Virus record (IMG/VR): IMGVR_UViG_2541047719_000006
Direction: 5' to 3' (one strand)
DNA: 52,113 bases
From: a virus
Lineage: Duplodnaviria; Heunggongvirae; Uroviricota; Caudoviricetes
Below the pieces are notes generated by a model. That model ran no database searches. It saw only the letters and a program-made list of their open reading frames with translations, and was not told the origin of the DNA. Every line of letters starts with the position of its first letter. Position 1 is the stretch's first letter. Positions 1,454 through 10,536 of this stretch are shown here, piece by piece. The position numbers were made by a program, and so were the translations under genes.

Positions 1454-1552
1454 CGCATCACCTCTGGCAGGCGCCAATGTTAGACTGAAATTGACGCCCG
1501 ATGTTGATTATTAATAATCAGCTATGAAGTTTTAATTTGAATACAATGCAAT

Positions 1553-6969: not shown

Positions 6970-7460
6970 AATTATCTCCATTTTCACAAATGAACTTTGT
7001 TGATGCGGTGCCTGGTGCCTCCAGGTGACGTTAACCAGTTAACAATTAACGCCGGATAATCCACCCATAACACTGATGCTTTTAACTGTTCCGCGTGCGC
7101 TTAGCCGCATTCACCGCATCACAAAATTCACTTTAAAAAGGGCGGACATCAGCCGAACTTCAAGAAAAAACTGATGCCGCCAAGACTACACACAGCAATG
7201 TCGTTATTTACAACCGGAGGCGCACTCCCACCATTTAAATTTAACAGACAAGACCGACTCTTTATGGATATCGGAAATGCGCCTTCGTGTTGCGCCCAGT
7301 TTTATTTCACCACCTCCGGGCTTCGGTGGTCTCGGCTATACCCCTACAGCGAGAGCTTGTGTTAACATTTCAATACCCTTACAGTTGAGAGTTATTGATA
7401 TGTTGGATGTATTTACTCCATTGTTGAAACTTTTTGCTAACGAGCCACATCGAAAGACTT

Positions 7461-7889
7461 ATGTATACGATTATCATTTTTGGTCTCACTCTCTGGCTGA
7501 TACCGAAAGAGTTTACTGTCGCATTCAATGCTTATACTGAAATACCTTGGCTCTTTCAGATTATCGTTTTTGCCTTTTCTTTCGTGGTCGCCATTTCCTT
7601 CTCAAGATTGCGAGCACATATTCAAAAGCATTATTCATTACTACCAGAGCAACGAGTATTGCTTCGTTTATCTGAGAAAGAAATCGCTGTATTTAAAGAT
7701 TTCCTTAAAACAGGAAATCTTATTATCACTTCTCCTTGCCGTAACCCGGTTATGAAAAAATTAGAACGGAAGGGCATCATTCAACATCAGAGTGATAGCG
7801 CAAACTGTTCTTATTATCTCGTCACCGAAAAATACTCCCATTTTATGAAGTTATTCTGGAACAGCAGGAGTAGACGTTTTAATCGTTAG
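7461..7889 (+). CDS. sieB: Superinfection exclusion protein B (SieB), possibly N-terminally disrupted
   Basis: Membrane-protein ORF MYTIIIFGLTLWLIPKEF...; the expected N-terminus MLDVFTPLLKLFANEP is encoded from ATG 7400 in a different frame, implying a 1-nt indel. Confidence 0.6.
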   Translation: MYTIIIFGLTLWLIPKEFTVAFNAYTEIPWLFQIIVFAFSFVVAISFSRLRAHIQKHYSLLPEQRVLLRLSEKEIAVFKDFLKTGNLIITSPCRNPVMKKLERKGIIQHQSDSANCSYYLVTEKYSHFMKLFWNSRSRRFNR

Positions 7890-8041
7890 CTTACTGTGTG
7901 CTTCTCCAACCATCGGCGCGCACCAGTTTCGGTTTTAAATGTTTTGCTTTTGGTATAAGTCATGGCGGTGAACGTTCCATCCTGGTTGGGGAACACGCCG
8001 CACACCATGGATTCGTTATTGCCGAGGTCGATTTTTTGCAT
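7886..8041 (-). CDS. ydaF: YdaF-like small prophage protein
   Basis: 51-aa ORF read by hand (MQKIDLGNNESMVCGVFPNQDGTFTAMTYTKSKTFKTETGARRWLEKHTVS); Rac position between sieB and ydaG; convergent 4-nt overlap with sieB. Confidence 0.5.
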   Translation of the reverse strand: MQKIDLGNNESMVCGVFPNQDGTFTAMTYTKSKTFKTETGARRWLEKHTVS

Positions 8042-8051
8042 TTTTCGCACC

Positions 8052-8186
8052 TCACATCTTGTTGTTGCGGATAGAGGCTTCTGCTTGCCAGAGATCCCAG
8101 TCGTTGCTACGTAAAGCCTGCACAGCCTGGCTGTAAGTGATACCGCAACAATCCATCAAATACTGAACTACTTCGTAATGCACCAT
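8052..8186 (-). CDS. ydaG: YdaG-like small prophage protein
   Basis: 44 aa from internal ATG 8186 (AAGGGGA RBS): MVHYEVVQYLMDCCGITYSQAVQALRSNDWDLWQAEASIRNNKM. Confidence 0.5.
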   Translation of the reverse strand: MVHYEVVQYLMDCCGITYSQAVQALRSNDWDLWQAEASIRNNKM

Positions 8187-8387
8187 CTTTTTTCCCCTTA
8201 ACGCCGGGTGGCGGAACGTTTTATCTACTGCGCTTTGTATCAATCAACAACTGCCGTCATGTTCGTATGCCTCAGGCTGGCTACTTAGCCCTGTTCAGTG
8301 GCTGGATAACTCGAGGTATTGTCCTGCCGTTCTCCGGTGGGGCGTTGTTTGGATATGCTTATTAAACACAAAGGGTTTTTGCATGTC

Positions 8388-8402
8388 AACACAAAATGTG
8401 TT
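8388..8402. promoter_or_regulatory. Inverted repeat AACACA-aaa-TGTGTT (candidate left operator)
   Basis: 6-bp arms, 3-bp spacer; near-identical repeat at 8965..8979 on the other side of racR; extra half-site AAACACAAA at 8364..8372. Confidence 0.45.
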
Positions 8403-8439
8403 TTTATGGTGGCGTGTCATATGATGATGGTACAAAAAA

Positions 8440-8462
8440 AGCCCGCTGATAGCGGGCTGATT
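8440..8462 (-). terminator. Rho-independent terminator downstream of racR
   Basis: On minus strand GCCCGC-tatca-GCGGGC followed by TTTTTTT. Confidence 0.55.
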
Positions 8463-8488
8463 GGCATATTACTGTGATAGCAAGATCA

Positions 8489-8908
8489 TTACTCCGGTGG
8501 GGGGGTATCTTTAAGCCTGCCCCTCAAATATTTTTCTACATACTCGTCGATTTCTTTTAGCCGGACTTCAAATAGCTCAATCATTCGTTGTTGTTCTGAG
8601 CCCGGTAGCTGGTTAAACAACTCAAGAAGTTTTCGTTGGGATTCATTTAACCACAATTCAGAAGAGTCTTTTTCCCCAAAGAGGAGCTCAGGAGGAGATA
8701 TGCCCAGCGCCTTTCCCAGGACGACAGCATCATGCACTCCAACATTTCTGCTGCCCGCCTCATAGTTACCTATACGCGATTGCGTCCATCCGCAGATTTC
8801 AGCAAGTTTTCCTTGAGATAAACCAAGCTTCTGCCTGCGCTCTTTAAGACGCATTGCAATTTTGTCATTGAGCCTACTAGCGGCAATTTTTTCGTTTTCT
8901 TTTTCCAT
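8489..8908 (-). CDS. racR: Prophage repressor, HTH XRE family (RacR-like)
   Basis: 139 aa with HTH segment LGLSQGKLAEICGWTQSRIGNYE; divergent from ydaS as in Rac. Confidence 0.75.
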   Translation of the reverse strand: MEKENEKIAASRLNDKIAMRLKERRQKLGLSQGKLAEICGWTQSRIGNYEAGSRNVGVHDAVVLGKALGISPPELLFGEKDSSELWLNESQRKLLELFNQLPGSEQQRMIELFEVRLKEIDEYVEKYLRGRLKDTPPPE

Positions 8909-9004
8909 TTCGTCCTTGTATCACGAATCGTGATTTATATAAAACACAAAATAGCTTGACCGTAAAACACAAGGTGTGTTTAAAATTGTCGTCGGAGGTT
9001 TTTA
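8909..9004. promoter_or_regulatory. Divergent racR/ydaS promoter-operator region
   Basis: Palindrome ATCACGA-A-TCGTGAT at 8920..8934; inverted repeat AACACA-agg-TGTGTT at 8965..8979; TTGACC (8955..8960) with TAAAAT/TTTAAA -10 candidates; GGAGG RBS before ydaS. Confidence 0.5.
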
Positions 9005-9247
9005 ATGAACAAAATTTCAACATATCGAAAACAACTTGGTCTGTCTCAAAGACAACTCGCTGTTCAGCTAGGGTGGATACAAAGCCGACTGGCAAATTAC
9101 GAAGCAAATTTTCGTACCCCTGGGCTAGAGGAGTGCAGAAAAATTGTTTCCACCCTTAATCGGCTTGGTGCTCATTGTGGACTTGACGATGTATTCCCCC
9201 CAGACGGTAAGCATAGCGAAAACAGCATAGGAGCGGTTGATTCATGA
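9005..9247 (+). CDS. ydaS: Cro-like HTH regulator YdaS
   Basis: 80 aa; HTH LGLSQRQLAVQLGWIQSRLANYE; GGAGG RBS; first gene of rightward early operon. Confidence 0.75.
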   Translation: MNKISTYRKQLGLSQRQLAVQLGWIQSRLANYEANFRTPGLEECRKIVSTLNRLGAHCGLDDVFPPDGKHSENSIGAVDS

Positions 9248-9666
9248 AAATCAGGCATGAGCACATCGAATCAGTGTTGTTAGCCCTAGCAGCCGAAAAA
9301 GGGCAGGCGTGGGTTGCTAACGCAATTACTGAAGAATATCTGCGCCAGGGGGGCGGCGAATTGCCCCTGGTACCAGGCAAGGACTGGAACAATCAGCAGA
9401 ATATCTATCACCGTTGGTTGAAAGGTGAAACGAAAGCGCAAAGGGAAAAAATTCAGAAACTGATCCCTGCGGTTCTGGCAATTCTTCCGCGCGAGCTGCG
9501 TCACCGACTCTGCATCTTCGATACCCTGGAACGCCGTGCATTACTGGCGGCGCAGGAAGCGTTGAGTACGGCAATTGATGCGCATGATGATGCAGTCCAG
9601 GCCGTTTACCGTAAAGCATATTTCAGCGGTGGCGGGTCTTCCGACGATTCTGTCATTGTTCATTAA
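9244..9666 (+). CDS. ydaT: YdaT-like early regulator
   Basis: 140 aa; start overlaps ydaS stop; Rac synteny. Confidence 0.65.
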   Translation: MKIRHEHIESVLLALAAEKGQAWVANAITEEYLRQGGGELPLVPGKDWNNQQNIYHRWLKGETKAQREKIQKLIPAVLAILPRELRHRLCIFDTLERRALLAAQEALSTAIDAHDDAVQAVYRKAYFSGGGSSDDSVIVH

Positions 9667-9678
9667 GCAAAAGTTTTC

Positions 9679-10536
9679 ATGCTGTTTGTGCTTATTCTAA
9701 GCAACCGGGCAGCATCATACGGGGCAATTATGGCCGCATTACCATACATGCAACTGTACATAGCTGATTACCTGGCTGACACCATGCATTTGTCAGCAGA
9801 GGAGCACGGTGCGTATTTGTTGCTGATGTTCAATTACTGGCAAACAGGAAAGCCAATACCCAAAAACAGGCTGGCAAAAATTGCCCGTCTGACTAACGAG
9901 CGATGGGCTGATGTTGAACCATCCTTGCGGGAGTTTTTTTGCGATAACGGCGAGGAATGGGTGCATCTTCGGATTGAGGAAGATCTGGCATCAGTCAGGG
10001 AAAAATTAACCAAAAAATCAGCCGCAGGAAAAGCATCTGTTCAGGCCAGAAGAAGCAGAAAGGAAGCAGATGTTCAAACAAAACAAGAGAGAAATTTAAC
10101 AGGTGTTCAAACAGATGTTGAAGTGGTGTTTGAACATGATGTCAACACAAAGGCAACTAATAAAGATACAGATAAAGATCTAAAAACAGATCCCCCCCTA
10201 AATCCCCCCCGGGGGAATCGAGGTGTCAAAAAGTTTGACCCTCTGGATATTGCTTTGCCGAACTGGATTTCTGTCTCGCTTTGGCGTGAGTGGGTTGAAT
10301 TTCGCCATGCATTGCGTAAACCGATTCGAACGGAGCAGGGCGCTAACGGGGCGATACGGGAGCTGGAAAAATTCCGCCAGCAGGGTTTTACCCCTGAGCA
10401 GGTGATTCGACATAGCATCGCCAATGAATACCAGGGCTTGTTCGCGCCGAAAGGTGTTCGGCCTGAGACGTTGCTCAGACAGGTTAACACCGTCTCGTTG
10501 CCGGACAGTGCGATCCCGCCAGGCTTCAGGGGGTAA
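9679..10536 (+). CDS. ydaU: YdaU-like replication-associated protein
   Basis: 285 aa; precedes DnaC-like gene; alternative start 9730. Confidence 0.65.
   Translation: MLFVLILSNRAASYGAIMAALPYMQLYIADYLADTMHLSAEEHGAYLLLMFNYWQTGKPIPKNRLAKIARLTNERWADVEPSLREFFCDNGEEWVHLRIEEDLASVREKLTKKSAAGKASVQARRSRKEADVQTKQERNLTGVQTDVEVVFEHDVNTKATNKDTDKDLKTDPPLNPPRGNRGVKKFDPLDIALPNWISVSLWREWVEFRHALRKPIRTEQGANGAIRELEKFRQQGFTPEQVIRHSIANEYQGLFAPKGVRPETLLRQVNTVSLPDSAIPPGFRG

Follow-up and report, generated by a model that had tools for sequence, protein, structure and literature searches.

The inverted repeats that bracket a small repressor gene in IMG/VR record IMGVR_UViG_2541047719_000006, a stretch of 52,113 bp referred to below as the window and corresponding to a Rac-like prophage at ttcA, are most plausibly the operators of a lambda-style immunity switch carried in an exchangeable cassette (probability about 85%). 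The predicted operator would span 15 bp, with two 6-bp half-sites placed around three non-contacted bases, A(A/T)CAC(A/G)-N3-(C/T)GTG(A/T)T, and would be deployed as a three-site right operator (OR) between the repressor gene and the gene for a Cro-like protein, and as a two-site left operator (OL) beyond the terminator of the repressor gene. Several features by which a lambdoid switch is recognized are found here, namely divergent helix–turn–helix (HTH) genes, spaced dyads in the region between them and the same operators again on the far side of the repressor gene. A first-pass annotation of the sequence had likened the layout, one repressor gene between two sets of the same operator, to OL and OR of lambda, and this is borne out by conservation on both sides, by candidate divergent early promoters and by co-variation of the repeats with the recognition helix of the repressor.

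Two perfect copies of AACACA-N3-TGTGTT, OL2 (AACACAaaaTGTGTT) and OR1 (AACACAaggTGTGTT), lie 578 bp apart on opposite sides of the repressor gene (Table 1). OL2 is located exactly where it had been annotated; OR1 is present as described, its coordinates having been off by one (8965..8979 instead of 8966..8980). The heptamer AACACAA starts exactly 23 bp to the left of each perfect repeat (8365..8371 and 8943..8949), rather than about 20 bp away as first noted, and its earlier description as a half-site fits only the right-hand copy, OR2, in which one half is conserved, the left-hand copy being part of a degenerate full site, OL1. A perfect palindrome 12–26 nt upstream of the repressor ATG, ATCACGAATCGTGAT, had been given correct coordinates but treated as separate; it has the 6-3-6 geometry of AACACA-N3-TGTGTT, has the A-CAC core in common with it and constitutes a third OR site, OR3, in the same register, the centres of all neighbouring sites being 23 bp apart on both sides. 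The exact pattern AACACANNNTGTGTT, with no mismatch allowed, is matched twice in the window against 0.01 matches expected, and none of 100 shuffled sequences reached two. The generalised pattern AWCACRNNNYGTGWT, which was derived after the data had been seen, is matched three times against 0.07 expected (0/100 shuffles reached three), and the three matches are OL2, OR1 and OR3. The heptamer alone is not enriched, with 11 copies found and 10 expected in the window, so the half-sites owe their meaning solely to the 23-bp register and to conservation, and not to how often they occur.

Relatives encoding the same repressor retain the repeats on both sides. About 5.4 kb was examined in each of 80 viral contigs whose repressors are 86–100% identical to that of the window, and all 80 contain exactly three matches to the generalised pattern, namely OR1, OR3 and OL2, with OR1 and OR3 46 bp apart in every locus. 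In an alignment of the 61 distinct immunity regions, 4 of the 48 half-site positions are variable; of the 128 other intergenic positions, 80 are (Fisher p=2e-11). The central spacers of the operators vary at 8 of 9 positions. Nucleotide diversity is 0.005 in the half-sites vs 0.03 at third codon positions. OR1 varies at a single half-site position out of 12, in a single sequence, around three highly variable central nucleotides; the half-sites of OR3 are invariant around variable central bases, and the central three nucleotides of OL2 are also free to vary. The AACACA half of OR2 (TTTTGTGTTTT on the other strand) is invariant and that of OL1 nearly so, the other half of OL1 being kept as AAAAC(R), one mismatch from the consensus. 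Further afield, Citrobacter youngae and C. braakii, whose repressors are 65–67% identical, carry AACACA-N3-YGTGTT on both sides with the 23-bp spacing.

Judging by the sequences of heteroimmune relatives, the operators change together with the recognition helix of the repressor. Repressors with the helix GW(T/A)QSRIG go with AACACA operators; a second E. coli type, represented by phage vB_Apl-pPE4 and several prophages, combines the helix GWSGSSRIA with CTCACR-N3-YGTGAG on both sides, and in Enterobacter the helix GWATASRVG is accompanied, again on both sides, by GACACR-N3-YGTGTC. Unrelated repeats accompany an unrelated helix (Phytobacter; L007) and also DicA. The Cro-like protein follows another pattern, as a 100% identical copy is paired with the N-terminal domain of the second repressor and with CTCACR sites at OR1 and OL (L088 2968..3210; L090, L097, L114). 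The recombination breakpoint between the two E. coli types is exactly the Cro-like ATG (window 9005), and OR3 in the second background stays ATCACG-N3-YGTGAA. In Citrobacter and Enterobacter the helices of the Cro-like proteins read GWRQSR and GWGRSR, and the OR3 half-sites AACACG/ACCACG and GCCACA/ACCACG, respectively. Together, these four lineages suggest that OR3 primarily serves the Cro-like protein and would bind the repressor less strongly, as in lambda.

The operators belong to a unit that is exchanged as a whole. When window positions 7000..10500 were compared with K-12 Rac by blastn, alignment blocks were found at 7000..8344 (93.5%) and 9238..10499 (97.2%) with nothing between them, which delimits 8345..9237 as an exchangeable immunity cassette; to the right of the two HTH genes, only ydaT and the genes beyond it are common to K-12. 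The same left junction is the switch point between immunity types in vB_Apl-pPE4 and other prophages. The left operators are situated inside the swapped segment, about 20 bp from this junction, and since the second E. coli type switches there too, they travel with the repressor and not with the target genes.

Candidate promoters can be placed by their consensus elements in positions that occupancy of the operators would be expected to block. The predicted leftward promoter (PL) points towards the genes on the ydaG/ydaF/sieB side and would drive ydaG, ydaF, kilR and recET. Both of its hexamers are invariant in the relatives, save for single-sequence changes in the −35; OL2 abuts this −35 with a 2-bp overlap, and OL1 lies in the spacer and overlaps the −10. 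The tet promoter of pBR322 has the same hexamers and the same spacing as the candidate PL. TTTAAT is the native −10 of that functional promoter (PMC2912393), and the equivalent place in K-12 Rac reads TTGACA-17-TATAGT. The predicted rightward promoter (PR), for the Cro-like gene and ydaT, has two −10 candidates, TTTAAA at 8979..8984 with a 17-bp spacer and TAAAAT at 8981..8986 with a 19-bp spacer. Its elements are largely conserved, the 86% group of relatives having TAGAAT at the 19-bp position. OR1 fills the PR spacer and touches the −10, and the degenerate half of OR2 overlaps the −35. For the repressor itself, GATACA may, with low confidence, be the −10 of a maintenance promoter (PRM); every operator type examined has a hexamer G(A/G)TA(A/C)A 8–9 nt ahead of the repressor ATG. 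Such a position suggests that the maintenance transcript would be leaderless or nearly so, and repressor transcripts of this kind have been reported for lambda cI, PaaR2 and RacR (PMC8630535; PMC9638921). Another −10 considered for the repressor gene, TATAAA (8939..8934), was dropped because its bases vary among close relatives.

In the mechanism proposed, dimers of the 139-aa repressor would bind OR1 and OR2 as well as OL1 and OL2 and shut off both early promoters, probably with cooperativity between neighbouring sites, by analogy with lambda and its 23–24-bp spacing. OR3 would act as a weaker repressor site for autoregulation and would be preferred by the Cro-like protein, whose binding would in turn shut off repressor synthesis. 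As the repressor has no LexA-like cleavage domain, induction is expected to proceed through an antirepressor, as for DicA, rather than through RecA-mediated cleavage.

A number of observations weigh against this interpretation. OR2 has only one good half-site, the composite units on the left and right are direct repeats instead of being mirrored as in lambda, and at PL the strong site lies upstream of the −35, whereas at PR it is located in the spacer. The −10 of PR is ambiguous between the two spacer lengths, PRM has no recognizable −35, and a consensus promoter scan of the window returned nothing at the sites, neither PL nor PR nor PRM, PL being missed because the scan requires A at the second position of the −10. 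The occurrence of the same Cro-like protein with a different repressor and different OR1 and OL operators means that binding of all sites by both proteins cannot be assumed. Finally, no description of this immunity type or of its motif was found in the literature searched.

Other explanations of the repeats have to be measured against the same data. The conserved blocks might be promoter elements only, those of PL, PR and PRM, with incidental dyad symmetry and the real operator elsewhere. TGTGTT merges with TTGACA at PL and with TTTAAT or TTTAAA at both promoters, so contacts of RNA polymerase could explain part of the conservation, but this would leave unexplained why conservation extends to both halves of OL2, OR1 and OR3 and not to the three freely varying bases between them, and why half of OL2, upstream of the −35, is kept although a promoter would not need it there. 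Moreover, a change of recognition helix is accompanied by a symmetric change of both halves (GACAC..GTGTC, CTCAC..GTGAG) with TTGACA kept, and no other repeated motif is common to the left and right sides, which together make an origin in promoter elements alone very improbable. It is barely credible that the repeats work as RNA or DNA hairpins, such as terminators, attenuators or processing sites, instead of as protein-binding sites. They are perfect dyads of 6–7 bp with 3-nt loops, and z-scores between −2.7 and −3.3 were obtained for three of the five dyads folded, yet the hairpins are weak (−3.7 to −5.3 kcal/mol vs −14.2 for the nearby terminator), no T-run follows them, and Rfam returned only two sub-threshold chance matches. 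OL1 and OR2 are conserved though unable to form a good hairpin, only one of their halves being well conserved (the other half of OL1 is degenerate), and most of the sites, being in or upstream of promoters, would not be transcribed at all.

Two further proposals concern how the sites are used and leave their role as operators in place. According to one of them, each site serves one protein, AACACA sites the repressor alone and ATCACG the Cro-like protein alone, without the competition known from lambda. This would agree with the pairing of an identical Cro-like protein with two repressors and two types of OR1 and OL while OR3 stays ATCACG-N3-YGTGA(T/A), and with the outer half-site bases, which differ between OR3 and OR1 in all four lineages, at position 2 in three of them. 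Nevertheless, so strict a division is unlikely, given that the two proteins have almost the same recognition helix and that the CAC core and the geometry are common to all sites, making some cross-binding likely; only one outer base separates OR3 from OR1 in the second immunity type, and the comparison extends over four lineages only. The other proposal, the stronger part of the first-pass reading, adds to the switch a DNA loop of about 580 bp, through which repressors at OL and OR would also cooperate, as octamers of lambda CI do, with tighter repression and occupancy of OR3 as the outcome. Lambda CI does loop OL to OR, and the layout here, with multiple sites on both sides, permits the same, the 23-bp spacing of neighbours being typical of cooperative repressors. 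PaaR2 of CP-933P, which octamerises, controls both PR and PL (PMC8630535). On the opposite side, the C-terminal domain of the repressor has no solved relative, its matches in the Protein Data Bank (PDB) being to the HTH domain only, and looping is not reported for DicA in the literature searched. The distance from OL2 to OR1 is 574, 575, 576, 578, 579 or 585–587 bp in close relatives and 549–550 bp in Citrobacter, so that selection on helical phase is not apparent, although at such a length phase is of little consequence. Looping can be put forward only tentatively and by analogy, with the odds somewhat against it.

Variation between the half-sites deserves a description of its own. Bases at 8371..8397 that belong neither to half-sites nor to hexamers are hypervariable, and those at 8938, 8952, 8962 and 8974 are so to a lesser degree. 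Diversity reaches 0.217 in the tract comprising the PL spacer and linker and 0.148 in the central spacers, vs 0.03 at the third codon positions of the adjacent gene. In 48 sequences, 20 haplotypes of the segment 8372..8384 were counted, the median for 13-bp windows being 2.5, and six pairs of sequences that are identical over the other ~680 bp differ only in the PL tract, one pair at five positions. This pattern may reflect diversifying selection acting on the affinity of the operators or the strength of the promoter, but equally short-patch recombination or local hypermutation. A doubtful extension, for which we would give rather long odds, is that the AACACA sites OL1, OL2, OR1 and OR2 are read by the repressor and OR3 by the Cro-like protein, and that diversifying selection or short-patch recombination acts on the set-points of the switch. 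If this were true, two types of operator would explain the reuse of one Cro-like gene with at least two repressors and operator sets, and the non-contacted bases of operators and linkers, which are evolving several-fold faster than synonymous sites (diversity 0.15–0.22 vs 0.03), would be a sign that otherwise near-identical prophages are still diversifying their set-points.

Table 1. Elements of the immunity region and their positions in the window
Feature	Coordinates	Strand	Basis or remark
Immunity cassette	8345..9237	.	No DNA homology to K-12 Rac; holds OL/PL, terminator, repressor gene, OR and Cro-like gene
Candidate PL, leftward	8361..8389	-	−35 TTGACA 8389..8384, 17-bp spacer, −10 TTTAAT 8366..8361
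OL1, degenerate operator AACACA-aag-GGTTTT, centre 8372	8365..8379	.	Two-mismatch match to operator pattern
OL2, perfect operator AACACA-aaa-TGTGTT, centre 8395	8388..8402	.	Read from sequence
Intrinsic terminator of repressor gene	8440..8458	-	Terminator scan: 8-bp stem, 6 GC pairs, T-run
Immunity repressor, 139 aa	8489..8908	-	Open reading frame list; N-terminal HTH_3 and DicA-type C-terminal domain
Candidate PRM-like −10 GATACA	8917..8922	-	Overlaps proximal half of OR3, 8 nt before ATG
OR3, perfect palindrome ATCACG-aat-CGTGAT, centre 8927	8920..8934	.	Adjoins repressor start
OR2, operator AACACA-aaa-TAGCTT, centre 8950	8943..8957	.	One half consensus
Candidate PR for Cro-like gene and ydaT	8956..8986	+	−35 TTGACC 8956..8961
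OR1, perfect operator AACACA-agg-TGTGTT, centre 8973	8966..8980	.	Read from sequence
Cro-like protein, 80 aa, HTH_3	9005..9247	+	Pfam HTH_3 E=6.7e-10
YdaT-box-like inverted repeat TTGATT-catgaa-AATCAg	9237..9254	.	One mismatch to TTGATT-N6-AATCAA

The names racR and ydaS, attached to the two HTH genes in the first-pass annotation, do not hold: each gene merely occupies the position of its K-12 namesake. Homology to K-12 RacR was not found (BLASTP E=3.3), and RacR operators, WTAGGC-N3-GCCTAW, are absent from the cassette. On sequence comparison the repressor is instead a full-length member of the DicA family, being 30% identical to DicA over 125 aa (BLASTP E=2e-15) with the C-terminal LLELFN-LP-SEQ region included. 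Its N-terminus matches Pfam HTH_3 (E=5.5e-13), and a Pfam search of the C-terminal half gave no other family and no LexA/S24 peptidase domain. Its PDB relatives, all limited to the HTH domain, are the repressors of 434 (E=2e-4), lambda and P22 and the protein C.AhdI. The terminator of the repressor gene, with a predicted RNA fold of −14.2 kcal/mol (z=−4.7), stands between the gene and OL/PL. The partner protein, also HTH_3 and divergently encoded, gave no local alignment with K-12 YdaS at E<=100, and homology to DicC was not found either. It is 45% identical to the repressor over the 42-aa HTH (E=2e-10), and the recognition helices of the two, GWTQSRIGNYEA in the repressor and GWIQSRLANYEA in the Cro-like protein, are near-identical, which makes shared operators plausible.

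YdaT, put forward earlier as a possible binder of the operator repeats, was rejected in this role, as its site, TTGATT-N6-AATCAA, differs from them and is found elsewhere, at 9237 and 1504. The first of these, TTGATTcatgaaAATCAg, is found at the right edge of the cassette and overlaps the start codon of ydaT. In K-12 Rac, YdaT binds the box at this position and activates a reverse promoter for the repressor gene (PMC11879457); by analogy, the same circuit, which resembles CII and PRE of lambda, probably feeds the unrelated repressor described here. The second YdaT-box-like repeat, TTGATTattaatAATCAg (1504..1521), is located ~50 bp upstream of the xisR start, and an identical 18-mer is present at the same place in K-12 Rac (L170 2004..2021). 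The available portion of a 2025 paper on YdaT reports two YdaT sites in Rac and makes no mention of xisR. By analogy with CII and PI of lambda, this repeat could mark a YdaT-dependent promoter for xisR-intR.

The whole 52,113-bp window has a 100% match in E. coli K56-43-un. In its left arm the genes follow the order intR, xisR, ralR, recT, recE, kilR, sieB, ydaF; the two HTH genes are at the centre, and the right arm continues with ydaT, ydaU and ydaV. The annotation of the 100%-identical genome record marks sieB and a racC-like gene as frameshifted (window 7434..7889; L001 8151..8640), giving at least two pseudogenes in the early left arm of the prophage. Of 5,426 complete E. coli genomes, 168 carry the immunity type, among them O157:H7, O145 and O103 strains. 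Among cultured phages, a search of the phage database found only one sharing the cassette, in part and with the other immunity type. A host assignment that looks odd was met in vB_Apl-pPE4 (L088, PP818812.1): its recorded host is Actinobacillus pleuropneumoniae, yet its early region, with recE, kil and ydaT, is of the E. coli Rac-like kind and, starting with the Cro-like gene, shows 96% identity to the window.

The cassette would control kilR and recET leftward and ydaT rightward; in K-12, derepression makes the counterparts of these genes toxic or recombinogenic. It also enlarges the set of exchangeable immunity cassettes at the Rac locus by one specificity. Reporter fusions and binding tests can be designed directly from the consensus AWCACR-N3-YGTGWT and the site map. 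The general picture of lambdoid switches is unchanged, and only the hypervariable spacers and the shared Cro-like protein might teach something new.

Among known systems, lambda cI/cro offers a close parallel in layout, with a repressor gene bracketed by operator sets that overlap divergent early promoters, a three-site OR, a site beside the repressor gene that differs from the PR site, and a repressor promoter that is probably weak and leaderless. The OR sites of lambda are 24 and 23 bp apart, compared with 23 bp throughout the window. Unlike those of lambda, the sites in the window measure 15 bp rather than 17 bp, two OL sites instead of three are recognizable, OL and OR are separated by ~0.58 kb rather than ~2.4 kb, the left and right units are direct and not mirrored, and the repressor lacks the S24 autocleavage domain. 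Phage 434 is similar in that its repressor and Cro have very similar recognition helices, so that both pairs would share operators, and in its short operators with non-contacted central bases, which in 434 tune affinity. In contrast, the operators of 434 are 14 bp long (ACAA-N6-TTGT), and its repressor has a cleavable C-terminal domain.

The DicA/DicC/dicBp system of Qin, in E. coli K-12, is related through its repressor, a short protein without a domain for RecA-mediated cleavage that is homologous over its full length, C-terminal domain included, and is encoded divergently from a small HTH gene. Its operators, too, occupy the intergenic region and recur beyond the repressor gene, on its downstream side, at the promoter for a DUF1391 gene (ydfA/ydaF) and a cell-division inhibitor; they have been described at dicCp and dicBp (PMC10448788), and the DicA motif was found on both sides of dicA. 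The operator is nevertheless a different one (TTAGY-N4-RCTAA vs AWCACR-N3-YGTGWT), the Cro-like protein of the window is not a homologue of DicC, and the backbone is that of Rac (recET, kilR, ydaT-ydaU-ydaV) and not of Qin. CP-933P of E. coli O157:H7, which encodes PaaR2/YdaS/YdaT, is built on a prophage backbone of the same type, in which ydaT follows the Cro-like gene, and footprinting and reporter fusions have demonstrated OR as well as PL/OL downstream of its repressor operon (PMC8630535). The comparison covers layout and operators; the operator consensus of CP-933P is a different one, GTTTAGTAA, and its repressor operon also carries the paaA2-parE2 toxin-antitoxin genes.

K-12 Rac, with RacR/YdaS, has the same insertion site (ttcA), flanking genes and cassette position, whereas the proteins are not homologous and the operators unrelated. 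There, RacR O3 overlaps the racR start codon (PMC9638921), and ydaG, ydaF and kilR rise 40–70 fold when RacR falls (PMC11014345). RacR-type repeats, WTAGGC-N3-GCCTAW, occur on both sides of racR, those downstream of the gene (L002 3130..3169), ATAGGtaatGCCTAA and ATAGGCtatGCCTAA, flanking the TTGACA-17-TATAGT promoter that points leftward to ydaG, and from its sequence this pair is an OL/PL-like element. The paper on the RacR operators (PMC9638921) deals only with the racR-ydaS intergenic region and never mentions ydaG. Set beside these systems, the arrangement in the window is, as far as its sequence can tell, standard for lambdoid phages, and its novelty lies in the operator sequence and in the mapped sites of an immunity type that is uncharacterized in the literature searched.

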